Part shown: in pieces, positions 3,472-43,216 of the stretch
Layout of the letters: each line of letters starts with the position of its first letter
Numbering within the stretch: position 1 is the stretch's first letter
Origin: an uncultured archaeon
GTDB lineage: Archaea > Aenigmatarchaeota > Aenigmatarchaeia > Aenigmatarchaeales > Aenigmatarchaeaceae
Direction of reading: 5' to 3'
NCBI GenBank assembly: GCA_964608725.1
Contig: CAZSPB010000001.1
Span: forward strand, 43,696-107,695
Length of the DNA: 64,000 nt
Translations under genes and position numbers: made by a program
The notes under the pieces: model-generated
What the model saw: the letters and a program-made list of their open reading frames with translations, nothing else
Databases searched by the model: none
What the model was told of the DNA's origin: nothing

Positions 3472-4452
3472 CTAATAAATTATATCACTGTCAAATGATA
3501 TTCTCTTGGGAAGAAGCCAAGGTAAGTGCAAAGCTAAAAATCTTGCTAATTTGTCTCCAAGTTTTGAAAAGAATATTTTTGGTTCAAAAAACTCTTGTAA
3601 TTCTTCTTCATATTTTTTAAAATCTGGAAAATTTTCAACCAATATTTCACTTGCTATTAAACCCCACATTATTCCTCCACTAGATAAAGGTTTTGTTAGT
3701 CCTATTGAATCACCACATAATGCAACTCTATCTTTTGCAGCTTTCACTAAACCGTATGGTATAGGTGCTGAATAAACTTTTTTTATTTTCACCTTCTTCC
3801 TTTTACAAAATTTCTTGAATTCGCTTTTGGCAACTTCAGGAAGTTCTAACAAACCATATTCAATTTTTTTACCTCTGGGAATTTTCCAAGCAAACCCATT
3901 TTTTAAAGGAAAAACATCAACTTTTTTGCTTTCATCTTTTTTATTAACATAACAATAAATACCGAGAATATAGTCAGGATCTTTTATTTTAAGTGTTTTT
4001 CTAACTATGGAGAAAAAACCATCACAGCCTATTAAGTAATCAAATTCAATAACTTTTCCAGAAACTAAGACTTGTGGCCTTTTCTTCTTTAAAAAATAAA
4101 CTTTTTTTACTTCACTGTTCAAAAAAATCTTTGCTCCATTCTTTTCAGCAAGACTCGCAACATATTGATCTAATTTTTTTCTATTTATAACGAACATCCT
4201 TGGATAAAAATCAAGAATTACTCTCTTCTTCGGAAAATGTACATAAGCTTCTTCTATTGTGTTCTCTATCAGCTCATTATTCCTTGGAATAAAATCCCAA
4301 ATTCTCTTAGAAACTAAACCTGAGCATGCTTTTTCGCCAATTCTTTTATTCTTCTCAAAAACTGTTACATCGTGTTCTTCAGAAAGCCTCCAAGCTAAAT
4401 AAGAGCCAACTATACCACAACCAACTATACAAACTCTCATATTCCTAACCAA
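3472..4452 (-). CDS. FAD-dependent oxidoreductase, geranylgeranyl reductase family
   Basis: N-terminal Rossmann dinucleotide motif VCIVGCGIVGSYLA. Length is 326 aa, and a GD..G motif sits near the C-terminus (ALCGDSIG). Confidence 0.7.
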   Translation of the reverse strand: MVRNMRVCIVGCGIVGSYLAWRLSEEHDVTVFEKNKRIGEKACSGLVSKRIWDFIPRNNELIENTIEEAYVHFPKKRVILDFYPRMFVINRKKLDQYVASLAEKNGAKIFLNSEVKKVYFLKKKRPQVLVSGKVIEFDYLIGCDGFFSIVRKTLKIKDPDYILGIYCYVNKKDESKKVDVFPLKNGFAWKIPRGKKIEYGLLELPEVAKSEFKKFCKRKKVKIKKVYSAPIPYGLVKAAKDRVALCGDSIGLTKPLSSGGIMWGLIASEILVENFPDFKKYEEELQEFFEPKIFFSKLGDKLARFLALHLPWLLPKRISFDSDIIY

Positions 4453-4481
4453 TATATAGTTTAATACAATATCTATTTTCT

Positions 4482-7025: not shown

Positions 7026-8220
7026 ATGCTTCTCATAATATTTTCAATTTTCATTGGAATTTTAATTGGAATAGTTGCTGGAATACTTCCTGGCCTTCAC
7101 CCAAATAATACTATTCCAATGATATTAAGTTTATCTTTTCTTTTTGGGCCTTTACCTACTGCAATAATTTTAGTAACTTCTGGAATTGTTAATTGTTTCA
7201 TTAATTTCATACCTTCAATTTTACTAGGGGCTCCAGAGGATTCTTCTGTATTGGGAGTTTTACCTGGCCATAAGTTATTGTTAGAAGGAAGAGGATATGA
7301 AGCTGTTAAGTTATGTGTTATTGGAAGTTTTTATGGAATTATTTTTTCTGTGTTAACTTTACCATTTTTTATAATTTTCATTCCATTTTTATACAAAACT
7401 ATAAGGCCTTATATTCATTGGTTGCTAATTATTGTAATAGGATATTTAATTTTGAATGAAAAGAAGAAAGGGATTGCAACCTTTGTTTTCATAATTTCAG
7501 GAATTTTAGGTTTCATTGTATTGAACAATTTTTCAGATTCTGCTCTCTTTCCTCTTCTTACAGGTTTGTTTGGCTTACCTATCCTTCTCGTTTCAATTTT
7601 TCAAAAAAACAAAACTTCCTGAAAAATTTGTTTTTAATGAAATCAAGTTAGAAAGGAAAAAAGTTTTCTCTTGTGTTAGCATTGGAGCTTTAGCAGGAAT
7701 AGTAGCTGGTTTATTACCTGGAATAGGAGCAACTCAATCAACTATATTAACTCAAAACGTTTTTGGAAAAAATAAAGATGAGAGAAGTTTTTTAATATCA
7801 ATTGGTGCAATAACGACTTCAGACATAGTATACTCTATTCTTGCCCTTTTCTTAATAGGAAACCCAAGGTCTGGAATAGCTGTTGGAATATCTAAGTTAT
7901 TAGATGTTAAGCTAATTGAAACTATGATTTTTATTTCAACTATAATTTTATCATCTGGAATAAGTGTTTACTTAACTCTTAAGCTAACAAAAATTTCTCT
8001 AAGTTTTTTGAAAAAATTAAATTACAGAAAACTATGTTTTTCAATCATAATTTTCCTTTTAGTTTTAACTTTCATTTTTTCTGGTTTTGAAGGGATTTTT
8101 ATTCTCACTGTTGCAGTGGCAATAGGTTTAATACCAAATGTCGTTGGTATAAGAAGAAGTTATGGAATGGGTTGTTTAATTATTCCAACTTTGATCTTTT
8201 TCTTTAACTTCTATGGTTGA
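7026..8220 (+). pseudogene. TctA-family (DUF112) membrane transporter, interrupted by a frameshift at an A7 homopolymer
   Basis: Two ORFs (7026..7622 in frame 0, 7570..8220 in frame +1) overlap by 53 nt. Each carries one copy of the duplicated G-L-L-P-G motif (GILPGLHP / GLLPGIGATQ) typical of the two halves of TctA. The overlap contains caaaaaaacaaaac (A7) at about 7596-7602. Confidence 0.5.
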
Positions 8221-10847
8221 AACTCAACCCTTTTACCTAAAGAGCCATTAAATGAGAAATAAAGTGGCCCGGAACACTTAGGGCATTTACCACTTAAAGT
8301 TGGTCTCCTAAAGCTCCAATTACAATTAAAGCAAACAACATTATCAAAATCGCTTAAAACAGTTTCTTCTGGTGATTTTGGTTTCTCCTTTTTCAAAATA
8401 TCTAACAAACTTTTCTGTCTAACACCTTCTAATAATTCAGAAGCAGAAATGCCACAAACTTCAAATATCCTTTCGAGGGGAGGAAGAAGCTGATTGTAAA
8501 TGTAATATTCAGAATCAATTGGTAAACCCCTTTCTTTTACGAATTCAGGATCTTCTGCTCTCTTTGATAAGAGTTGATTACCTTTTATTATAACGTAACC
8601 TAACCTTTCTCCAACTACTGACCTAGTTTTATCTCTTTTCAAAATTTTTTTTGCAAGCTCAACATGAGGTTGAACGCCTTCATACTTATCTAAAGACTTT
8701 GTTATACCTTTAACTATAGTTAGTTTTTCTATCGGTATTCTTCCTTTTGCAAGGTCTTCTATCACTTTTCTCACATATTTCGAAGCTTTCGTAATATTCT
8801 TTTCTTTTAAGATTATTTCAAGAACATTTCCCAAAGTTTCTGATACTAAATCACACCAATCTCTTCTTACAGTTTCTATACCTTTCATCTCTATTTTATC
8901 AACCCACTTATCCCTTTCCCTTTCAAATGCCCAACCAGCATACCTCTTCTTAGCTTCTATCAAGAAAGTTTTGTAAATTTTTTCGAATTTTAAATTAAGA
9001 CCTGGAAGTCTTTCTGAAATGAATTTTGATACTTTTCTCCCAAATTTTTCAGCTTCATCAAGATCTCTTATATCAACTTTAAGAAAAACAGAATCAGTAT
9101 CTGCATACAAAACTTTAACTGGAAAGTTTTCTTCTATAAGTTTTTTTGTTTTTGTTATAGTTTCTCTACCAAAAGCTGTTATCGAGTTTGCAATTTCTAT
9201 AACATACAATCTTGATCTTATGTAACCTGTGTAACCATACAAAGAATTTAAAAGGTCTTTTAAAGCTAATTGTTTTGCATTCAACAACCTTTTCTTCTCA
9301 GGGTCTGTCTCAAGTTTTAGTTGTTTTTTTATAGCTATTCTTGCTGACAAAATTTCATCCACAACTTGAGGTAAAATTCCTTTAAAAACTTCAGGTTTAA
9401 CGAACTTCGTACCAAAAGGAGAAACTATATGTTCTACATCTTCTCCATTTTTTAATAAAGTTGTTGTACAAATGTTGTAAGCCCTTATTAAAGAAGGATA
9501 CATACTAGTAAAATCCAAAACAACTACCCACTCATGCAAACCTATTTCAGGTTCTAAAACTATAGCTCCTTTTAAAGTTCTACCTTTTAATCTACTCTTT
9601 ATATCTCTTGGCTTACAAGGCATTAAGAAATTTCTTTTGTGAAATTCATGTAAAAGTCTACACTCATGTCTTTGAGCTTGACCACCAAAACAGTCTTGTA
9701 AAAGTAACCCAGAAAGCTTTGAAAGCTCAAAAAATTTATCTAGCAAACGTTTCTCTATAACTAATCTCAAAACTAAAATAGCATCTCTTTTAGCATAATC
9801 AACTAATAGTTGCATATCTTTTCCATTCCATATTTCTCTTATTTTTTGTAAGTAATTTTTACCCAACTCTATTTTTCCTATCCCTAAAACTTCTTTTGAG
9901 ATTGTACTCAAATCATACCTTTTAAACTTTACCCAAGGATCTCTCCTAAATATTTCAAAAGTATCAACAACAATTCTTCCAGAAATACTTGGAATGTAGC
10001 TATGTTCTAATTTTCTAGCAATAGAATTTTTCTCTGATCTTCCAAGATCTCTTGGAATTTTATATTTTTCGAAACGTTTTAAAAGAAATGGTAAATCAAA
10101 ACCATTAATGTTATGGCCACAAATTACATCAGGATCGAAATCAATTAAGATCTCTTTAAATTTTTTTAACATTTCTTCCTCGCCAGAACAAGTTATGGCC
10201 CCATTTGCTTTTCCTGATTTTGCAAGTAAAACTAAAGATTTCCTACCTTTATATTCAGGGTGAAAAGCTAAACTTATAACAATGATTTTATCTTTTTCTG
10301 GTGTTGGTATTCTCTCTTCTTCAGTCAAGCATTCTATATCAAGAGATAAGTATTTAAAAGGTGCGTTTTTCTCTAATTCAATTGGCCTTATTTCTTCTGC
10401 TTTAATTGCCTTACATTTTACTGTGTTAGTTGATATGAATTTTCCTTTTACATCTATCCAACTCATCCCTTTCAAGTTATGATCTGCCATAAATCTATAC
10501 TTAAAAAGAATGTCTGCTTCATAAGGAATTCCAAAATTTTTTGCAAAATCTCTTATTTCAGGTATCTTTCCTGGATCATTACCTGTTATTTTCAAGACTT
10601 TAACTGGAGGCTGAAAACCTATTGGCAATTTTCTCTCAACAACTTCAAATTTTAGCTCTGGATACCTATTTTTCAAAGCTTTAATAGCGTCTTCATAATT
10701 CTCTTCTTTAGAATATAAGTAAAAGTAAGGAAGAAAACCTTCGTAAAAAACGCATATAACTTCACCTTTAATGTTTTTACAAAAAATTCTTATAATTGGT
10801 TTTTTGTTAAGCATTATGTAATCGCAATCAAGAATTTGGAGTTCCAT
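8211..10847 (-). CDS. polB: Family B DNA polymerase (PolB) with 3'-5' exonuclease domain and C-terminal zinc finger
   Basis: Motif C YADTDSVF, exonuclease-region motifs (LSLDIE, FDPDVI...GHN), KxY-type motif, and a C-terminal CFNC...CPKC. Length is 878 aa. Confidence 0.9.
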   Translation of the reverse strand: MELQILDCDYIMLNKKPIIRIFCKNIKGEVICVFYEGFLPYFYLYSKEENYEDAIKALKNRYPELKFEVVERKLPIGFQPPVKVLKITGNDPGKIPEIRDFAKNFGIPYEADILFKYRFMADHNLKGMSWIDVKGKFISTNTVKCKAIKAEEIRPIELEKNAPFKYLSLDIECLTEEERIPTPEKDKIIVISLAFHPEYKGRKSLVLLAKSGKANGAITCSGEEEMLKKFKEILIDFDPDVICGHNINGFDLPFLLKRFEKYKIPRDLGRSEKNSIARKLEHSYIPSISGRIVVDTFEIFRRDPWVKFKRYDLSTISKEVLGIGKIELGKNYLQKIREIWNGKDMQLLVDYAKRDAILVLRLVIEKRLLDKFFELSKLSGLLLQDCFGGQAQRHECRLLHEFHKRNFLMPCKPRDIKSRLKGRTLKGAIVLEPEIGLHEWVVVLDFTSMYPSLIRAYNICTTTLLKNGEDVEHIVSPFGTKFVKPEVFKGILPQVVDEILSARIAIKKQLKLETDPEKKRLLNAKQLALKDLLNSLYGYTGYIRSRLYVIEIANSITAFGRETITKTKKLIEENFPVKVLYADTDSVFLKVDIRDLDEAEKFGRKVSKFISERLPGLNLKFEKIYKTFLIEAKKRYAGWAFERERDKWVDKIEMKGIETVRRDWCDLVSETLGNVLEIILKEKNITKASKYVRKVIEDLAKGRIPIEKLTIVKGITKSLDKYEGVQPHVELAKKILKRDKTRSVVGERLGYVIIKGNQLLSKRAEDPEFVKERGLPIDSEYYIYNQLLPPLERIFEVCGISASELLEGVRQKSLLDILKKEKPKSPEETVLSDFDNVVCFNCNWSFRRPTLSGKCPKCSGPLYFSFNGSLGKRVEFQP

Positions 10848-10896
10848 GAAATTATATTTAAGTTAACAATTTAAACCATTTTCGTTACTTTAAAAT

Positions 10897-11793
10897 TTAA
10901 ATTGGAGTAATATCTCTTGTTTTCAGATTTATTATGTTATTTGGTAAGACTATAGTTACTCCTTTATAATTTTTTATTTCTCCTTTATTTGTGAAGAGAA
11001 TATCAGGTATAGGATCAATTAAAAAATCTGTTTTCTTCAAATTTACAAACCTCTTTTTTAGCAGTTCTGAGCCATCTAAATCAGGTGCTATCAAAATAAT
11101 TATATTCTCTATCTTTAGAAAGGCTGGTGTTTTCACTTTAATTTTCTTATTCTTTAAGTTATCAAAAACTTTATCAAAAAACACTTTATAGTGTGCTTCA
11201 CACTCTTTTTCATCTTTCAAGAATGCAACTAAAATTTTGTCTTTTGTGTGACTTGCGGTCCTTAATGGAATATCAGGATAAAAAATTTTGTTAGCTATTA
11301 ATTTCTCAGAATAAAAACCAGAAACAGCTATAACATCATCTAGCTCAAGTTTTTTCCAATCCTCTTCTTTAACTAAAATATCAATATCTCCTGTTGGATC
11401 CTCTAAAGTTATGAGAAACTCATTATCTTTTTCTTTCTTCTCTTTAACAAAACCAATCACACTTATTTTCCCTTTACTTCTCTTGTTTATCGAAATAACA
11501 TTCGTCAACTCAAGTTTTTTTAAAAGAATATTTTGAAGAAAATTGTACCTTTCGTTTAATTGTTTAACATACTCTTGAATTGAAAAACTTTTTCTTGGTT
11601 CAAATTCTTTTAAAATCTCAACTTCACTACTTAATATTTTTTTGATAATATCTTTAGAAAGAATAAAGGTTTGAGTTTTTTTAAGTTCTTCTAAAAGTTT
11701 CTTAATTTTTTCTTCATTAAGTTCTTTAATTATTTCAACTGCATCTTCTTTTATTAAGAAACCTTGGTTCAAAAGTTCTTTTAAAAAATTCAT
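10897..11793 (-). CDS. DP1-like protein (PolD small-subunit N-terminal domain plus OB fold) lacking the phosphodiesterase domain
   Basis: N-terminus MNFLKELLNQGFLIKEDAVEIIKEL resembles DP1 N-terminal domains. The OB-fold segment VIGFVKEKK...LITLEDPTGDIDILV...VIAVSG...YPDIPL matches the DP1 OB fold and the PDIP junction. Only about 110 aa follow, with no HxD/GNHE metallophosphatase motifs. The position between orc1 and a polymerase gene is where DP1 sits in many Euryarchaeota. Confidence 0.45.
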   Translation of the reverse strand: MNFLKELLNQGFLIKEDAVEIIKELNEEKIKKLLEELKKTQTFILSKDIIKKILSSEVEILKEFEPRKSFSIQEYVKQLNERYNFLQNILLKKLELTNVISINKRSKGKISVIGFVKEKKEKDNEFLITLEDPTGDIDILVKEEDWKKLELDDVIAVSGFYSEKLIANKIFYPDIPLRTASHTKDKILVAFLKDEKECEAHYKVFFDKVFDNLKNKKIKVKTPAFLKIENIIILIAPDLDGSELLKKRFVNLKKTDFLIDPIPDILFTNKGEIKNYKGVTIVLPNNIINLKTRDITPI

Positions 11794-11824
11794 AAGAGTA
11801 TTTGAACCTAGAAATTTTTATTCT

Positions 11825-13030
11825 TTAAGAATAAAATATTTGCTCAAGAAGTTTTTTCAACTTCCTAAAAATAGTTTTTGATAGGTTTATACTAACTACC
11901 CTTGTTCTTCCATATCTTCCTTTTGAAACTATTTTAGCATTTATTATCCCAAAAAGATCAAGTTCACTTATAAGATCTGAAATCCTTCTTTGAGTTAATA
12001 CTTTAAGGCCTTGTTCTTTACATATTTCTTGGTAACAATCAAAAATGTCTCCTGTTTGTATTTCTTTGTTCTTTTCAGCAAGCCTTAATATAGCATAAAG
12101 TACAGCTTGGCTTTGTTTTGGTTGTGTTTTGACTGTTTCAATTATCCTATCTAAATCTATTTTTTCATGGGCCATATCTACATGAGCAACTCTAACTTTG
12201 TCTTCTCCATTTCTTTCTGCTAATTCTCCAGCTACTCTCAAGAGATCCAAAGCTCTTCTCGCATCCCCATGCTCTTGAGCTGCAAGAGCTGCACATTTTT
12301 CTATAACCCCCTCTTCTAAAACACCCGGCTCAAAAGCTATTTTTGCCCTTTCCCTTAAAATATCTTGAAGTTGTAAAGCATTGTATGGGGGAAAAATTAG
12401 TTCTTCTTCACTGAGCGAACTTTTTATCCTTGGATCTAAAGTTTCAATAAAGCTTAAATTGTTTGTTATTCCTATTAAAGAAACTCTAGAATTATGAAGC
12501 TCTTGATTCATTCTTGTTAAATTATAGAGTATTTCATCACCTGTTTTATTTATAAGAGCATCTATTTCATCAATAATAATTATAATAATTCCTTTATTCT
12601 CTTCTAATGTTTGAAAGAATGTATTGTATACTTTATCTGTTGGGAGCCCAGTAAATGGAACTTCTCTACCAAGCATCCTAGATAATTCAGCCAATAATCT
12701 ATATTCAGTATCTGCAACCCTTTTCATTTTACAGTTCACATAAAGGGTTTTAACTCTTTGGCCATTACAATTACTTATCTCTTCTAATTGGGATCCAACA
12801 TATCTTGAAACTAAAGTTTTTCCTGTTCCAGGCCTCCCATACAAGAAAATATTGCTTGGCCTTTGCCCTTTCAAAGCAGGTGCTAATATTCTACTAAGAT
12901 CATTTATCTGTCCTTCTCTATGGGGTATTGTTTCTGGAGTAAATGATATTGTTAAAGCATTTCTATTCTTAAATATTGGTTTAGATTCAAGAAATTTCAT
13001 AAAAATGTTATTATTCAATTCCCCTTTCAT
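11825..13030 (-). CDS. cdc6: Orc1/Cdc6 replication initiator
   Basis: Walker A LYGRPGTGKT, Walker B IIIIIDEID, sensor motifs, and a C-terminal winged helix. The likely start is the second Met (MKGELNN..., ATG rc at 13028-13030). The ORF track extends to 13120. Confidence 0.9.
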   Translation of the reverse strand: MKGELNNNIFMKFLESKPIFKNRNALTISFTPETIPHREGQINDLSRILAPALKGQRPSNIFLYGRPGTGKTLVSRYVGSQLEEISNCNGQRVKTLYVNCKMKRVADTEYRLLAELSRMLGREVPFTGLPTDKVYNTFFQTLEENKGIIIIIIDEIDALINKTGDEILYNLTRMNQELHNSRVSLIGITNNLSFIETLDPRIKSSLSEEELIFPPYNALQLQDILRERAKIAFEPGVLEEGVIEKCAALAAQEHGDARRALDLLRVAGELAERNGEDKVRVAHVDMAHEKIDLDRIIETVKTQPKQSQAVLYAILRLAEKNKEIQTGDIFDCYQEICKEQGLKVLTQRRISDLISELDLFGIINAKIVSKGRYGRTRVVSINLSKTIFRKLKKLLEQIFYS

Positions 13031-13103
13031 AGAAAAAACCTCTATTTCTTTTGAAAGTAAATACGTGAAGTTATATATTTTTTTCTTCACGTTAACCCCT
13101 TTA

Positions 13104-13170
13104 TTTCCTGTGAAGTTCATATGAAGTTTTTTCTCAAATCACACCCTATTTTTTCCTGTGAAATCTCCAG
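13104..13170. promoter_or_regulatory. Two direct mini-ORB-like boxes (TTCCTGTGAA) upstream of orc1/cdc6; candidate origin or autoregulatory element
   Basis: tttcctgtgaag at 13104-13115 and ttcctgtgaaatctccag at 13153-13170. They resemble the archaeal mini-ORB core TTCCAGTGGAAA and the TTCACGTGAA iterons at 23.7-24.1 kb. An AT-rich stretch follows (13171-13287). Confidence 0.4.
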
Positions 13171-13287
13171 AAGAAATAAAAATTTGAAAATTTTTTAGAA
13201 CCTTTATTTCTTATAACAATGTTAATATTTATATATAAGAATAATTTTGGAAAAGTAATTACTTGTTCGACAAGAAATTAAGGGGAG

Positions 13288-18903: not shown

Positions 18904-21015
18904 TTATAGTTTACATGTAGTACAACCACCGCTATAATCAGCTGGAACTTGAATTTCAAAATTGATTAAATCTTTCTTTTCTTTCAAAGACTCCTCTGTT
19001 ACCAAAACTTGTTTCTTTCTACTCCCATCTCTATAAACAGTAACACCTTTACATCCAAGTTTATAAGCAAGCCAATAGGCCTTTTCTATATCTCTCGGTG
19101 TTGCATGATAAGGGAAATTGATAGTTTTACTTACCGCATTATCAACATACTTTTGAAATGCAGCTTGAATTCTAATATGCCATTCAGGTGTTATGTCATG
19201 GGCCGTAACAAAAATTTTTCTAATATTTTCTGGAATTTCCTCTATATGCTGAATAGATGCTTTTTTCGAAACTTTTTTCATCAATTCTTCAGAATAAAAA
19301 CCTTCTTTTATTGCAATGGTTTCAAACAATGGATTAACTTCTACTAGATTGGTTCCAATTGTATCACCAACGTTTCTCACATAAGAAATTGCAAACAATG
19401 GTTCAATTCCACTTGAACAGCCTGCTATAACACCAATTGAACCTGTTGGTGCTATTGTTGTTACAGTAGCATTTCTCATGGCATCATACTTTCCATCCCA
19501 GATACTCCCTTTAAAATTCGGGAAAGAACCTCTTTCTCTTCCAAGCTCAACTGACATTTTTCTAGCTTCTTCAGAAATGAACTTCATTACTTTTTCGGCA
19601 ACTTCTAAAGCTTTTTCAGAATTGTAAGGAATTCTAAGTTTTATGAGCATGTCAGCAAATCCCATCACTCCAAGGCCAATTTTTCTATTCGCTTTTGTCA
19701 TCTTCTCTATTTCTGGTAATGGATACTTGTTAACATCAATAACGTTGTCCAAGAAATGAACAGCACTTCTAACTGTTTTTCTTAATTTCTCCCAATCTAT
19801 TTCACCATCAACTACCATTTTCGAAAGGTTTATTGATCCTAAATTACAGCTTTCATAAGGAAGTAAAGGCTGCTCTCCACATGGATTAGTAGCTTCTATT
19901 TTACCAATATGAGGAGTAGGATTCGATTTATTAATAGTATCTATGAAAACGACACCAGGCTCACCATTTCTCCAAGCCATAGTTACTATCAAGTTCCATA
20001 TTGCCCTTGCTTTTATTTTTTTCACAGGCTTCTTTGTCCTCGGATTTATGAGATCTATATTTTTATCTTTCAAAACAGCATCCATGAATTCATCAGTAAC
20101 AGCAACAGAAATATTAAAATTATTTAGCTCACCTTCTGTTTCTTTTGCAACTATAAAATCTAAAATATCAGGATGATCAACTCTAAGAATACCCATGTTA
20201 GCCCCCCTTCTCTTACCTCCCTGTTTTATTGCATCTGTATTTGCATTAAAAACTTTCATGAAAGATAACGGCCCAGATGCAATACCACCCGTTGACCTTA
20301 CAACATCGCCTGCAGGCCTTAATTTTGAAAAATCAAACCCAGTACCACCACCTGTCTTTTGGACTAAAGCCATAGCCTTTATAGCATCATAAATACTTTC
20401 TATACTATCTTCTACAGGAAGGACAAAGCAAGCGCTTAGTTGTCCTAAATCAGTACCAGCGTTCATAAGAGTTGGAGAATTTGGTAGGAATTCTAAATTC
20501 ACAAGCATGTTGAAGAACTCTTCTTCAGTTCTCTTAACTTCTTCTTCACTTTTTCCATAAAGTTTGTCTGCAGCTGCTATAGCTTTTGCAACCCTTCTAA
20601 ATAATTGTCTTGGAGTTTCAATTATTCTCAGATTTTCATCCCTTCTCAAATACCTGCTTGCTAAGACAATAAGTGTATTTAAAGGCAATTTCAAATCATC
20701 TTCTACTCCAAGTAAAGCTTTTGCTCTCCTAATTTCAGCTCTTTTTTGCCTATAAAGTATGTAAGCTTTTGCAGTTTTTGCATGTCCATTTTCAATCAAA
20801 ACTTTTTCTACAATATCTTGAACTTGTTCTACTGTTGGTATTTCTCCTTCTTTCAATTGCTTTTCTAAATATGAGACAACTTCATCAGCAAGTTTAGCAG
20901 AAAGTTTTTTATCTTTACCACCAACAGACTTTGCGGCTTTCCATATAGCTTCAGTAATTTTATTCTTATCAAAATCTACTATTCTTCCATCCCTCTTTCT
21001 TATTTTTTTAATCAC
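18904..21015 (-). CDS. nrdJ: Class II (adenosylcobalamin-dependent) ribonucleotide reductase with N-terminal ATP-cone
   Basis: ATP-cone at [24 protein letters not shown]. Finger-loop motif [16 protein letters not shown], plus NPCGEQ and C-terminal CTTC redox cysteines. Length is 703 aa. Confidence 0.85.
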
Positions 21016-21019
21016 ACTA

Positions 21020-21463
21020 TCACCTCAGAGCTTTTTTGAAAGATTTTACATCTTTAAATGGTTTATAATATGAAGCAAATCTAACATAAGCAACTTCATC
21101 CAACTTCTTCAATTTTTTCATCACAATATCTCCTATTGTTCTGCTTTTTATTTCAGGTGTGTGCAATTCTCTTAATTCTGATTCAATTTCATTCACTAGC
21201 CTCTCTATAGTTCTCAAACTTATTGGCCTTTTTTCACAAGCTTTCATTATGCCAGTTTTTAACTTCTCTCTATCAAATCTCTCTCTTCTTCCATCTTTTT
21301 TAATAACGATAAGGTCAAGGCTCACCCTTTCGTAAGTGGTGAATCTCTTTTTGCATTTTAAACATTCCCTTCTCCTACGTATAACTTTTCCTCTTTCAGT
21401 ATCTCTTTTATCTATAACGCGAGTTCTGGGTGATTTGCAAAAAGGGCATAGGATGGTTAACAC
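21020..21463 (-). CDS. nrdR: NrdR transcriptional repressor (zinc ribbon plus ATP-cone)
   Basis: CPFCKSPRTRVIDKRD...CLKCKKRFTTYERV zinc ribbon, followed by an ATP-cone (VIKKDGRRERFDREKL). Length is 147 aa. It lies immediately upstream of, and co-directional with, the RNR gene. Confidence 0.8.
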   Translation of the reverse strand: MLTILCPFCKSPRTRVIDKRDTERGKVIRRRRECLKCKKRFTTYERVSLDLIVIKKDGRRERFDREKLKTGIMKACEKRPISLRTIERLVNEIESELRELHTPEIKSRTIGDIVMKKLKKLDEVAYVRFASYYKPFKDVKSFKKALR

Positions 21464-21466
21464 CTA

Positions 21467-21510
21467 TACAATATATTGTGTTTAAAAGACCTTGAAAACA
21501 CAATTGTAAA
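21467..21510. promoter_or_regulatory. Putative NrdR boxes upstream of the nrdR-nrdJ operon
   Basis: Palindrome tACAATATATTGTgtt at 21467-21482 and a partial palindrome aACACAATTGTaaa at 21497-21510, about 28 bp centre to centre, just 5' of the nrdR start codon. The bacterial NrdR-box consensus is an approximately 16-bp palindrome, acaCwAtATaTwGtgt. Confidence 0.5.
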
Positions 21511-21602
21511 GAGAAAAAGTGATTCTACATTTAAACATTTTTCTATACTTCAAAAGATATGTTTTGAGATAGTTTTAAAATTTCATAATTTGATATAAGA
21601 TT

Positions 21603-36822: not shown

Positions 36823-38550
36823 ATGGAAAAAATATATGGGGCTATAAAAGATCCTTTATTTCATGAAAGGGTAATACTTGGAGAGGATTTACAAAAAGAA
36901 TTACTTAAAGAATATCTTTCTCTATTTCCAAATATGAAAAGTGCATCTGAATCTTTAGGTCTGAATTTAACAACGTTTTTTGCATATCTTAAATATCAAA
37001 ACAAATCTATCCCTAAAAAAGTTTTTGAAGTTGTAGCCTCTCGATTAGGTATTGAAGACCCATCAAAACTAATAAGAGAAAAAACTACACTTAAAGAAAT
37101 TCGAAGCAAATTTCTTAAAGAATTTTGGAGAAACGATAGAGAACGTGCTTTGAAGGTAGCTAGAAAAGCGGCACCATTGGGGATAAAAAAGCTAGAAAAA
37201 AAGAAAGGTAAAAGTAGGAAAGAGATAATGAAAGAGGTTCGGAGTCATCTTTATAATAAGTATGGACTAGATGCTCACCGTGTAATTGGTAATTTAAGAA
37301 TCGAGAAAGCAAAAAGGGAGTTTGGTAAAAACTGGAAAATGGAAATGATCAAACCTGCAATGGAAAAACTTAAAGAGAAATATGGAGAAAAATATTGGGA
37401 AGTTCTTTTACCTAAAGCTCGAGCTGCCTTAGAGAAAAAATATGGCCCTCTTTGGGCCTTGAGGCTTTCAAGAAGAGGAATGAAGGCTTTAAGAGAAAAA
37501 TTTGGTGAAAATTGGAGAGAAATAACTTTAGAGAGGGCTAGAAAAAAACTCAAAGAAAAATATGGAGAAGATGTTTACCATTTTCTTAGTAAGTTGTCGA
37601 AAGAGACAAGAAAAGTTAAATCCTTTGCTTCAAAAAGAATGGATATGAAGGAAGAAGAAAGGAAGTGTTACAGTTGTGGAAGTACTAACCTTATCAAAGA
37701 TCATGAAACTGGTGAAACTGTTTGTGCTGATTGTGGTTTAGTTCAATATGAAGCTTCACTTGATATGGGTCCAGAATGGAGAGCATTTGATGAAGAACAA
37801 AAGAAGGCTCGCACAAGAGTAGGACCTCCACAATCCCATAGGTACCATGATAAAGGTTTAGGTACTACAATAGGATGGATGGATAAAGATGCGCATGGTA
37901 AATCGTTAAAACCTGAACAAAAGGCTCAAGCATTTAGGCTTAGAAAATGGCAGAAGAGAGCGAGAGTACAAAGTTCAGATGAAAGAAACATAGCTTATGC
38001 TTTAACTTTAATTAATGGAATAGGAGAAAATCTTAATTTACCATCTCAAGTTTTGGATAATGCTTACATAAATTACAAAAAAGCAGTAAAGAGAAAATTG
38101 ATCAGGGGAAGGTCTATTCAGCAGGTAGCTGCTGCAACAGTTTATTTAGCTTGTAGATTGTGTGGTATAAACAGAACTTTGGAAGAAGTTGCTGAAGCAG
38201 CTTCTCTGAAAAAGAAAGATGTTGGAAAGCAGTATAGATTTATTGTGAAAGAATTTGAGTATTGGAATATTCCTCAACAAAAAGCATCAAATTATGTTAG
38301 TAGATTATGTAGTAGTATGGAACAAGAAGAGATATCTTACAAGATTCTTAATGCAGCAAAAAAGGCTAATCTTACTTCCGGCCGTGGCCCTATAGGTATT
38401 GCAGCTGCCGCAACCTATATTGCAGGTGTTTTATGTGGAAAGAAAGTAACTCAAAGAGAAATTGCTGAAAGAGCGGGGGTCACAGAAGTCACAATAAGAA
38501 ATAGGTATAAAGATTTAATGGATGAATTATTATTTGAAATTTCTCTTTAA
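36823..38550 (+). CDS. tfb: Transcription initiation factor TFB with a 272-aa N-terminal extension containing tandem 20-aa repeats
   Basis: The TFB core begins at MDMKEEERKCYSCGS...CADCG (zinc ribbon), followed by the B-finger and two cyclin folds. ATG at 37639 would give a canonical 303-aa TFB. The same frame stays open for another 816 nt upstream, with repeats ([AK]L[KR]EK[YF]GExxW...) of about 60 nt period in 37290-37610. Confidence 0.85.
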   Translation: MEKIYGAIKDPLFHERVILGEDLQKELLKEYLSLFPNMKSASESLGLNLTTFFAYLKYQNKSIPKKVFEVVASRLGIEDPSKLIREKTTLKEIRSKFLKEFWRNDRERALKVARKAAPLGIKKLEKKKGKSRKEIMKEVRSHLYNKYGLDAHRVIGNLRIEKAKREFGKNWKMEMIKPAMEKLKEKYGEKYWEVLLPKARAALEKKYGPLWALRLSRRGMKALREKFGENWREITLERARKKLKEKYGEDVYHFLSKLSKETRKVKSFASKRMDMKEEERKCYSCGSTNLIKDHETGETVCADCGLVQYEASLDMGPEWRAFDEEQKKARTRVGPPQSHRYHDKGLGTTIGWMDKDAHGKSLKPEQKAQAFRLRKWQKRARVQSSDERNIAYALTLINGIGENLNLPSQVLDNAYINYKKAVKRKLIRGRSIQQVAAATVYLACRLCGINRTLEEVAEAASLKKKDVGKQYRFIVKEFEYWNIPQQKASNYVSRLCSSMEQEEISYKILNAAKKANLTSGRGPIGIAAAATYIAGVLCGKKVTQREIAERAGVTEVTIRNRYKDLMDELLFEISL

Positions 38551-38835: not shown

Positions 38836-40737
38836 TTATAATTTATCTATTCCTTTTCCAGCAGCTAAACCAATGTTGGATTTTAAAATTTTATCAAGAA
38901 TTTCCATGTTAAGTTTCTTAAGCTGGCACATATGGCCACCTTTTAAAATTTTATGAAAATCTCCAAGAAATTCAATTTTTTCAATATCAGGCAGATTAAT
39001 ATCAACACCACCAGTATAAAAATCTCTTTTTGAGTTAAATTTCATTTTATCATATTTTGCAAAACCTTGTGAGAGGAGAGAATAGTCGAATTCTGCTAAC
39101 CCTACTCTCAAATTTTTTAGTTTAATATTTTTGTCAATAAATTTAAGAATTTTCAACGCAAGCTTTTTATTTTCAACATAATCACCAGCTATAGTTTCTA
39201 TCAAATCTTTAACACCACAAACTTCAACAATGCTTATTCCATCATCAAAATGACAATATTTATCCCTTCCAACTCTATGATTTAAATAATTTAATTCAGT
39301 AAGAGCTTTTGAGTTTATACTTTCTACTGATGCTACAATACACTTTTTTATTAAATTAAGCCTTTCTAATAGTAATTCATAAATTTTATCTTCATCCTTT
39401 GTTATATAACCTAATCTAGGAAGGTTTAAAGCAACCATTTGCATTTCAACAGTTCCGATTGTTCTTTCCCAACTTTTCCAGTTTGAGTCGAGTCTTGTCC
39501 AATCAAACATGTAGTTTGCATTTTCAGTTTGCCATTTTGGAATGAGGTTAGCAACGTAAATTTGGTCAAAGACTTTTTTGATATTTTCTGGTATATCTTT
39601 TCTGTTTCTAAATTTCAAAATAAATTTTGGGCAAATTGTTTTTCCTTTTTCACTCAAAACACTTAGAAACATTTCTAACAAAGTTCTTGCTTCGGCTTCA
39701 TAATCTTTATAACTCCCAACTTCTTTCCCACCACAATAAGCTGGTTGGTTTTTCAAAAATTTTGGGATGCTAACCTCCAAATTTATATAAACCCTTAAAG
39801 ATTTTGCATTTGTGATAGTGTATAAGTGATCTAAAGAGTAAATTATTCTTTCTGCCATTTGTTTTACTTCATATTTATTCTTCTTCCTTATGTATGGTGC
39901 TAAGAAAATGTTAAAAAAATCAAATGTTTGTTGCAGGTCTGCTAAATTTTCATTTATGGCTTTTATAGCTGTCTCAAAATGCGAAACACAAGAAGTCATA
40001 TTTTTTGGTGGTTCAGCTTTTAGGCCAATTATTTTCAAACCATGCTTTAAGATGAGCGAAAAATTATGCTGAAGGTCTATAGGGTAAGATTTTCCTACAT
40101 TTCTTATATGAATATCTTTTTCTAAATGTGCTCTCACAATTTCTCCCAAATTTTTTTCTCTTAATACATCAAGGAAATTTTTCTTTCTAAATAAAAACTC
40201 AGTTGATTGTAAAGCTTCTCTTAAGCGATATATTTTTCTATTTTCTTCTTCAAGAATTTCGAATAAAATTTTCCTAATTTCTGCAAACGTTATCCCATTA
40301 TAAACTCTCTTTGCTAACACTCTTCTTATTTTTTCAATAAGATCTTTTGGTGTCCCTGCTTCAATTGCAATTCTCTCTATTACATCTATATCAAATTCTT
40401 GCAATTTTCCTTCCCAATCTATTGCCAACAACTTTTTCTTTCTTCCTCTTTCTTTTCTAGAGAATACTTGTGAAATGCCTTCTGGAGAAATATCTAACTT
40501 AAATTTTTCTAAAGTATAGATATTCTTTTTCCTTCCATCTCTTATCTTTCTACATCTTAAAATCCCAGCTTTCTCCATTTGATTTAAGTACTTGAAAGCT
40601 GTTGAGAAACTTATTTTCAATTCATTTCTTATATCAGACAAAGATTTTGAGCCTTCTCTTGCGATTAAATCTACAATTTTTAATTTTATAGGATTATCAA
40701 GAGCAGAAAGTAGTTCTGCAAGCTTTTCAGGTTTCAT
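38836..40737 (-). CDS. Large protein with N-terminal ArsR-like winged helix and an uncharacterised 550-aa domain
   Basis: N-terminal wHTH (LSDIRNELKISFSTAFKYLNQMEKAGILRCRK). An internal ATP-cone-like stretch (IDVIERIAIEAGTPKDLIEKIRRVLAKRV...ITFAEIRKILFEIL). The segment YTGGVDINLP resembles RNR finger-loop motifs. No glycyl-radical or other known catalytic motif was recognised. Confidence 0.5.
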   Translation of the reverse strand: MKPEKLAELLSALDNPIKLKIVDLIAREGSKSLSDIRNELKISFSTAFKYLNQMEKAGILRCRKIRDGRKKNIYTLEKFKLDISPEGISQVFSRKERGRKKKLLAIDWEGKLQEFDIDVIERIAIEAGTPKDLIEKIRRVLAKRVYNGITFAEIRKILFEILEEENRKIYRLREALQSTEFLFRKKNFLDVLREKNLGEIVRAHLEKDIHIRNVGKSYPIDLQHNFSLILKHGLKIIGLKAEPPKNMTSCVSHFETAIKAINENLADLQQTFDFFNIFLAPYIRKKNKYEVKQMAERIIYSLDHLYTITNAKSLRVYINLEVSIPKFLKNQPAYCGGKEVGSYKDYEAEARTLLEMFLSVLSEKGKTICPKFILKFRNRKDIPENIKKVFDQIYVANLIPKWQTENANYMFDWTRLDSNWKSWERTIGTVEMQMVALNLPRLGYITKDEDKIYELLLERLNLIKKCIVASVESINSKALTELNYLNHRVGRDKYCHFDDGISIVEVCGVKDLIETIAGDYVENKKLALKILKFIDKNIKLKNLRVGLAEFDYSLLSQGFAKYDKMKFNSKRDFYTGGVDINLPDIEKIEFLGDFHKILKGGHMCQLKKLNMEILDKILKSNIGLAAGKGIDKL

Positions 40738-42815: not shown

Positions 42816-43216
42816 ATTTTTAGCCTGTTAATAACTTTTATTAAAGATGCTTTTCTTTTAAAGAAATGTAAATGGCCTTTACACTTACAATCACTTGAAC
42901 CAAAATTTTTGATTGTCTTATCTGCATTCTTCTCAATATATTGAGAAATAAAACATTCTATTTTTTTCTTACTTTGTATTACTATTGCTCCATCTATGGA
43001 AACTAATGGGTTTGAAAGTAAATAATCTATATGCCATTTCTTTTTCTTATTTCTTCTAAAATGTCTTTCTAACCTATTTTCAAGGTTTATATTTTTTCCT
43101 AATGCAGAACCAACATAACAATAATAACCCTTTTGAAAATCAATCAAACCTAACTTTCCAATTTTTATTTTTGATTTTTTCTTTAACTTTAAGACTAGGA
43201 TATAACTTCCCCTCAT
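42812..43216 (-). CDS. DUF123-like protein (GIY-YIG-related fold)
   Basis: GYYCYVGSA...RLERHFRR...KKKKWHIDYL pattern. Located between the two MinD-ferredoxin ATPase genes, as in methanogen genomes. Confidence 0.5.
   Translation of the reverse strand: MRGSYILVLKLKKKSKIKIGKLGLIDFQKGYYCYVGSALGKNINLENRLERHFRRNKKKKWHIDYLLSNPLVSIDGAIVIQSKKKIECFISQYIEKNADKTIKNFGSSDCKCKGHLHFFKRKASLIKVINRLKI

Follow-up and report, generated by a model that had tools for sequence, protein, structure and literature searches.

A putative autoregulated nrdR–nrdJ operon with a bipartite NrdR operator downstream of a TATA box in an Aenigmatarchaeota-related archaeon

The nrdR–nrdJ locus

The 64-kb stretch of DNA analyzed here (the window) carries nrdR, the gene for a repressor with a zinc ribbon and an ATP-cone, followed by nrdJ, the gene for a class II ribonucleotide reductase (RNR). 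The window has a GC content of ~30% along its whole length and is archaeal by its information-processing genes, as it encodes TFB, Orc1/Cdc6, RadA, a family-B DNA polymerase, and RPA-like proteins. Its placement near Aenigmatarchaeota, in the DPANN archaea, was based on named homologs of NrdR, NrdJ, and alanyl-tRNA synthetase (AlaRS). A putative NrdR operator consisting of one complete box and one half-box sits immediately upstream of the two genes, in the promoter of the RNR operon, and begins 14 nt after a TATA box. The features of the locus are summarized in Table 1.

The window NrdR matched the TIGR00244 model over residues 5–146 with 190.2 bits (cutoff 124.65), and its domains were assigned to PF22811 (Zn_ribbon_NrdR, residues 6–45) and PF03477 (ATP-cone, residues 52–138). 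The protein could be aligned to the solved NrdR structures from Escherichia coli (E 1e-39) and Streptomyces coelicolor (E 1e-31). The zinc cysteines C6, C9, C34, and C37, arranged as two CxxC motifs, correspond to C3, C6, C31, and C34 in S. coelicolor. In the S. coelicolor protein, R12, R26–R29, and R37 contact phosphates and D15 and R17 read bases (PMC9110341), and the corresponding residues of the window NrdR (R15, R29–R32, and R40, as well as D18 and R20) are identical. The nucleotide-site residues K55, E61, K67, K74, F129, and Y133 are likewise those found in S. coelicolor (K50, E56, K62, K69, F124, and Y128), with substitutions at R51 (K, at position 56 here), V127 (Y), and Q72 (E, as also in E. 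coli).

NrdR of the relatives starts with M-x-C-P-x-C, three codons downstream of the GTG at 21461–21463 that we take as the start of the window gene. The codon at this position is ATC in the window (21452–21454), with a GGTG 6 nt upstream of it. In alignment A2, the stretch from the box to the Cys codon is 4 nt longer in the window, and this length difference suggests that the start has been remodelled and probably moved to GTG, with ATC as an alternative candidate start.

NrdJ has an N-terminal ATP-cone (PF03477) followed by Ribonuc_red_lgN (PF00317) and Ribonuc_red_lgC (PF02867) domains, and scored 767.9 bits against TIGR02504 (cutoff 400) and 1004.5 bits against NF006417 (cutoff 961). An earlier note on this DNA had described nrdR as lying directly upstream of an ATP-cone class II RNR gene on the same strand, and this holds, with model matches for both proteins and a gap of 4 bp between the genes. 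Internal operon genes in the window are preceded by GGTG-type motifs resembling a Shine–Dalgarno (SD) sequence, starting at −12 to −9. Based on the short gap and on a GGTGA motif placed in the same way before nrdJ, the two genes almost certainly form one transcription unit. The close NrdJ homologs P0124, P0131, P0149, P0150, and P0176 are 1037–1150 amino acids (aa) long and contain intein/homing-endonuclease domains (PF14528, PF14890); the window NrdJ is free of inteins.

Table 1. Genes and putative regulatory features of the nrdR–nrdJ locus, with positions in the 64-kb window
Feature	Position	Strand	Description
nrdJ	18904-21015	-	Class II (adenosylcobalamin) RNR of 703 aa with N-terminal ATP-cone; downstream gene of the operon
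SD-like motif GGTGA of nrdJ	21020-21024	-	Overlaps the TGA stop of nrdR; 4 nt before the nrdJ GTG
nrdR	21020-21463	-	Zn-ribbon and ATP-cone repressor, 147 aa from GTG
Proximal NrdR box, complete	21466-21481		Plus strand ATACAATATATTGTGT, gene strand ACACAATATATTGTAT; ends 2 nt before GTG
Linker between boxes	21482-21497	-	16 bp, tttcaaggtcttttaa; TATA-like TTTTAAA at 21482-21488
Putative distal NrdR half-box	21498-21513	-	Gene strand CTCTTTACAATTGTGT; 16 bp from proximal box; conserved in relatives
Predicted TATA box of the nrdRJ promoter	21528-21535	-	Gene strand TTTAAATG, relatives TTTATAAAT; 14 nt upstream of distal half-box

The NrdR operator

The core pattern published for NrdR boxes, C.[AT].A[AT].[AT].G (PMC12051234), was too permissive at 30% GC, with an estimated ~170 chance matches per strand per 64 kb. 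Many of its matches were noise, including a recurrent match within CP[FY]C codons, and a weighted 16-mer pair score together with shuffled sequences was used in its place. The proximal box, ATACAATATATTGTGT, differs from the consensus ACACWATATATWGTGT by one mismatch and was ranked highest among single boxes in the weighted scan. It is the sole site with at most one mismatch in the 64-kb window, and no such site was obtained in any of 100 dinucleotide-preserving shuffles. The near-consensus box that the earlier note had placed at 21467–21482 is thus real, with the correction that the string read there, ACAATATATTGTGT, lies at 21468–21481 and the full 16-mer at 21466–21481; the scan of the window for further boxes yielded none other at this threshold. 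A single box with three mismatches and no partner, at 4447–4462 upstream of secF-like/secD, was dismissed. At 42931–42946, a perfect 16-bp palindrome, TCTCAATATATTGAGA, shares the 10-bp core of the NrdR box. It has neither a partner box nor a link to an RNR gene, lies inside a small unannotated open reading frame between two MinD/ParA-like genes, and is probably coincidental.

The distal element matches the consensus in its right half alone, and this conserved half reads AATTGTGT. Across 15 related loci, positions 8–16 of the element are conserved and positions 10–14 (ATTGT) are invariant, and the left half is degenerate, with less than 0.7 bit at each of positions 1–7. The window element has G13 and a C at position 3 in place of C4; the relatives are without this C. 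A one-position shift of the C is tolerated in one of the two boxes by bacterial NrdRs (PMC13584703). The earlier note had seen a partial repeat at 21497–21510, and the sequence in question, ACACAATTGT at 21498–21507, is no box as written, its own C and G being 5 bp apart and the core pattern failing, although it does form part of the conserved half-box. Judged from the aligned loci, the putative half-box is a real departure from the two-box rule. The linker between proximal box and half-box is 16 bp in 14 of the 15 clade members and variable in sequence, and the canonical linker between NrdR boxes is 15–16 bp (PMC13584703), which puts the box centers about three helical turns apart.

The operator in related loci

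For the comparison, 160 loci with genes for NrdR relatives were drawn from GTDB genomes and from metagenomes, and syntenic contigs were added. One NrdR, P0001, is 99% identical to that of the window. In the closest clade (15 loci, NrdR 60–79% identical), a complete proximal box, the 16-bp linker (14/15), and the distal half-box recur, and the proximal-box core CAA.A..TTG is kept in all close relatives. The earlier description of an intact unit of nrdR, operator, and nrdJ in an archaeal genome is therefore borne out by the archaeal genes of the window and by the conservation of the operator in these relatives.

In Woese-, Pace-, Nano-, and Micrarchaeota loci, both boxes are complete and 31–33 bp apart from center to center. 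A box pair with this spacing upstream of nrdR, scoring better than at least 99% of shuffles, was found at 36 of 49 archaeal-labelled GTDB nrdR loci, as against 10 of the 28 loci in that set labelled as bacterial. At most DPANN loci the gene immediately after nrdR encodes an RNR, which is NrdJ or an NrdD that has an ATP-cone. A locus from an Aenigmatarchaeota metagenome-assembled genome (MAG), L001, encodes the closest named relative of the window NrdR (79% identical; nrdR at 4001–4432) and has the same operator architecture, with a class III nrdD carrying an ATP-cone downstream in place of nrdJ. Regulator and operator are thus kept in L001, while the class of the downstream RNR is different. 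As a negative control, nrdJ homologs 69–70% identical to the window gene product, from a Bathyarchaeota genome and Nitrososphaerales MAGs, had no nrdR and no boxes upstream.

The promoter and its geometry

The close-clade alignments A1 and A2 both show an invariant TATA core, T.TAAAT, upstream of the distal half-box (TTTAAAT in the window, TTATAAAT in most relatives), and in them a weakly conserved tttAC follows ~23 nt downstream of the TATA box. TATA boxes were also surveyed in 42 non-redundant archaeal nrdR loci with good box pairs. About 38 of these have an 8-mer of the TTTAWATA type whose end lies 2–27 nt upstream of the distal box. Forty-nine of the 55 matches fell within this interval and six lay further upstream, whereas the matches in a reversed-sequence control were scattered. 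In the 15 close-clade loci, the distance from TATA box to distal box is variable (14 to ~27 nt) and the linker between the boxes is 15–16 bp throughout. The TATA-to-box distances could be grouped into classes of 2–10, 14–19, and 23–27 nt, but this pattern was not clean enough to be taken as 10-bp phasing.

Archaeal TATA boxes are usually centered ~26 nt before the transcription start. The start of nrdRJ is for this reason predicted near 21505–21507, within the distal half-box. Since the TATA box lies just upstream of the distal element, the operator probably covers the start site and early transcribed DNA, that is, the first ~40 transcribed bases.

Proposed regulation and alternative explanations

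In the published NrdR mechanism, oligomers loaded with ATP only cannot bind DNA, while tetramers loaded with dATP and ATP bind two boxes. Given the conserved DNA-reading and nucleotide-site residues, this bacterial mechanism is the best available model for the present locus, and the window NrdR should work like bacterial NrdR. We propose an autoregulated nrdR–nrdJ operon with a bipartite operator just downstream of the TATA box, a reading to which we assign a probability of roughly 0.6. NrdR would sense the balance of dATP and ATP through its ATP-cone and, at high dATP, would probably bind as a tetramer to the proximal box and the distal half-box together. The distal element would then cover the predicted start, and the proximal box, which stops 2 nt short of the start codon, would span about +24 to +40. 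NrdR bound in this way would leave access of TATA-binding protein (TBP) and TFB to the TATA box largely free and would block either recruitment of RNA polymerase or promoter escape, with repression of nrdR itself and of nrdJ as the expected outcome.

Several observations weigh against this proposal. The box-pair score in the window is 31, whereas shuffled sequences of 64 kb reach a maximum of 31.8 on average, and because the pair scores no better than shuffles in the window by itself, the case for the distal element rests on the relatives. Bacterial NrdRs need C4 and G13 in both boxes, and single changes can abolish binding (PMC13584703); by analogy, a half-box that lacks C4 may bind weakly. 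The transcription start is a prediction from the TATA distance alone, and nrdR has no clear SD sequence if its mRNA has a leader and translation begins at GTG. The first genes of the transcription units in the window, in addition, look mostly leaderless: most lack an SD sequence and have a hexamer of the TTTAAA/TTTATA type that starts 27–31 nt ahead of the start codon. This last point favors an alternative in which repressor and boxes are the same and the linker element TTTTAAA at 21482–21488 is the promoter of a leaderless mRNA. NrdR would then bracket the TATA box, the TFB recognition element (BRE), and the start site, and so exclude TBP and TFB. The first base of the linker TTTAAA is 23 nt from the GTG and 32 nt from the ATC, TTTTTAAAA is also present in the linkers of L001 and L081, and close relatives have no SD sequence before the ATG of nrdR. 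However, the TATA-like sequence is missing from the linkers of L084, L083, and L092 and poor in that of L085, whereas the upstream TTTATAAAT is invariant across all nine aligned close-clade loci and a strong TATA box is found upstream of the distal box across DPANN loci. The 23 nt to GTG are also ~5 nt short of the norm in the window. We rank a promoter in the linker second to the operator downstream of the TATA box, and consider it unlikely, at something like one chance in five. The proposal would also have to be revised if the distal element were no NrdR site at all, with NrdR acting on the proximal box alone or not acting, and AATTGTGT serving another role, for example as an initiator or initially transcribed element or as a target for some other factor. 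The absence of the C4 that is critical in bacterial systems, the failure of E. coli NrdR to bind isolated boxes, the coincidence of the conserved half with the predicted start-site region, and the non-significant pair score in the window are all in line with such a role. It is nevertheless improbable, as the conserved half corresponds to the right half of the NrdR consensus (aTTGTGT) and keeps a linker distance of 15–16 bp in 15 of 15 loci while the distance to the TATA box varies, and as sister DPANN lineages have complete distal boxes with the same spacing.

Origin of the nrdR–nrdJ module

The earlier note had regarded NrdR as essentially bacterial and had taken the locus for an operon acquired from bacteria together with its regulator and operator sites. 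The first of these views is dated. An early survey, as cited in a preprint (bioRxiv 10.1101/2025.03.28.645925), reported NrdR as absent from archaea, and later papers speak of a regulator 'rare in archaea' or found in 'some archaea' (PMC9110341, PMC12176259), while the most recent count puts NrdR in 77% of the bacterial genomes and 22% of the archaeal ones (PMC13584703). This uneven distribution does speak for a recent joint transfer, as do the haloarchaea, which took nrdR–nrdAB from bacteria (PMC3019208), and the NrdRs of Omnitrophota, Poribacteria, and Planctomycetia, which are 55–64% identical to the window protein and thus about as close as many DPANN ones. The GC content at third codon positions (GC3) of nrdR (0.277 vs. 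0.194 +/- 0.026) is moreover the highest, and its codon-usage distance the largest, among 47 genes tested in the window; nrdR is also the shortest of these genes (148 codons), and sampling noise may explain both values.

Against such a transfer, the named close homologs of NrdJ (69–81% identical) are all archaeal and belong to Aenigmatarchaeota, Micrarchaeia, Bathyarchaeota, and Nitrososphaerales. Since the Bathyarchaeota and Nitrososphaerales counterparts are without nrdR or boxes, enzyme and regulator appear to have separate histories. In a neighbor-joining tree of NrdR, the window protein pairs with an Aenigmatarchaeota NrdR (79% identity) at 99% bootstrap support, none of the supported nodes nests it among bacteria, and the bacterial NrdRs sampled form supported groups of their own. 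The deeper nodes have near-zero support because the alignment comprises only 146 columns, and they cannot date or direct a transfer between the domains. The neighborhood linking thpR to nrdR–nrdJ is common to two relatives, one of which (L164) also shares the PmbA/TldD pair, and the identities between the window and the L164 genome are 76% for NrdR, 81% for NrdJ, and 70% for AlaRS. Together with the synteny, a divergence of NrdR and NrdJ similar to that of AlaRS fits vertical descent. GC content, GC3, and codon usage of nrdJ are typical of the window, leaving nrdR GC3 as the only slightly raised value, and the promoter is of the archaeal TATA type. On these comparisons the locus is inherited within its archaeal group and is not a recently imported bacterial module; we regard joint acquisition from bacteria as very improbable. 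An ancient transfer of nrdR between the domains is plausible, given its distribution.

Relation to known systems and significance

The nearest characterized counterpart is the nrdRJ operon of S. coelicolor, for which autoregulation by NrdR (Borovok/Grinberg) and cryo-electron microscopy structures (7P37 and related; PMC9110341) have been described. In both operons, nrdR precedes a class II nrdJ, so that the repressor gene is itself part of the operon, and the repressors have the same domain architecture, the same DNA-reading residues (D15, R17, and RRRR in S. coelicolor), and the same nucleotide-site residues. The boxes are also 15–16 bp apart in both, and overlap the transcription start, which is a predicted one in the window. 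In contrast, the window promoter is of the TATA/TFB type and that of S. coelicolor has sigma-70 −35 and −10 elements, the distal box of the window is only half a box, and the window NrdJ is of archaeal lineage and has its own ATP-cone. The S. coelicolor NrdR is 195 aa long and has a long C-terminal tail, which the 147-aa window protein lacks.

Haloarchaea carry nrdR–nrdAB/nrdBA operons that came from bacteria (Lundin et al. 2010, PMC3019208), and in these archaea, too, nrdR lies right in front of an RNR operon. In the haloarchaea, a class I RNR came with nrdR, some of the operons reside on plasmids or secondary chromosomes, and bacterial neighbors are identifiable. The window, in contrast, has a class II RNR of archaeal type, in a chromosomal location that is syntenic within the lineage, with no identifiable bacterial donor.

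Some repressors of archaea, among them MDR1 from Archaeoglobus and LrpA and Phr from Pyrococcus, bind on the downstream side of the TATA box and prevent recruitment of RNA polymerase. These resemble the present case in that a bacterial-type DNA-binding protein has its operator over the start of a TATA/BRE promoter. NrdR differs from them in its fold of zinc ribbon plus ATP-cone, its effector pair dATP/ATP, and its binding as a DNA-kinking tetramer on two boxes; for NrdR, the step that would be blocked is inferred.

The system found here is thus of a known kind, with NrdR, its boxes, and an RNR operon, and the biology of the window itself is what annotation would predict. Two modest additions are the conserved location of the operator directly behind the TATA box and the clade-specific operator of one and a half boxes. 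In the literature searched, we found no paper that links archaeal NrdR boxes to TATA promoters or describes an NrdR from DPANN archaea. We see about even odds that a more general statement holds across DPANN, namely that NrdR has been built into TATA/TFB promoters in a fixed geometry, with the operator always at most ~27 nt downstream of the TATA box and the distal box hence over the start site, that it has been joined to nrdJ or nrdD genes, interchangeably, of archaeal lineage and not imported with them, and that the operator has shrunk to 1.5 boxes in one Aenigmatarchaeota-related clade. If so, the mode of repression by archaeal NrdR would be one not described in the literature searched, and the 1.5-box operator would imply asymmetric engagement of the NrdR tetramer. 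NrdR has been studied almost only in bacteria, where it is promoted as an antibacterial target, and many DPANN archaea keep a complete NrdR system with operators placed relative to the archaeal TATA box. The locus accordingly offers a case, defined in sequence, for how a bacterial-type nucleotide sensor could repress the eukaryote-like transcription machinery of archaea, and it may indicate one route by which the supply of deoxynucleoside triphosphates is controlled in symbiotic archaea with small genomes. The conserved half-box also offers a natural way to probe how far NrdR depends on the two-box rule.

Other features of the window

Apart from nrdJ, which is the sole evident functional RNR gene in the window, a gene at 38836–40737 on the minus strand encodes a 633-aa protein with an N-terminal winged helix of the ArsR/MarR type fused to a very divergent NrdD-like body (105 bits against TIGR02487, cutoff 326). 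Its C-terminus (...GLAAGKGIDKL) lacks the glycyl-radical motif RVCGY, and the zinc cysteines are missing as well. Based on these absences, the protein is probably no active class III reductase and may be a DNA-binding protein derived from an RNR. The window scan gave no NrdR box upstream of this gene, which starts at 40737. A similar gene combining a helix–turn–helix domain, an ATP-cone, and an NrdD-like region is located directly upstream of the Nitrososphaerales nrdJ counterpart (L162/L163, 739–2817).

The TFB (TFIIB) homolog of the window, encoded at 36823–38550 on the plus strand, is 575 aa long, and its zinc ribbon starts only at residue ~281, preceded by an N-terminal extension of ~280 aa without a Pfam match. 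The genes for the family-B DNA polymerase, an OB-fold protein, and Orc1/Cdc6 are neighbors on one strand (8211–13120, minus strand), and a replication origin could lie beside the Orc1/Cdc6 gene, around 13121–13287.

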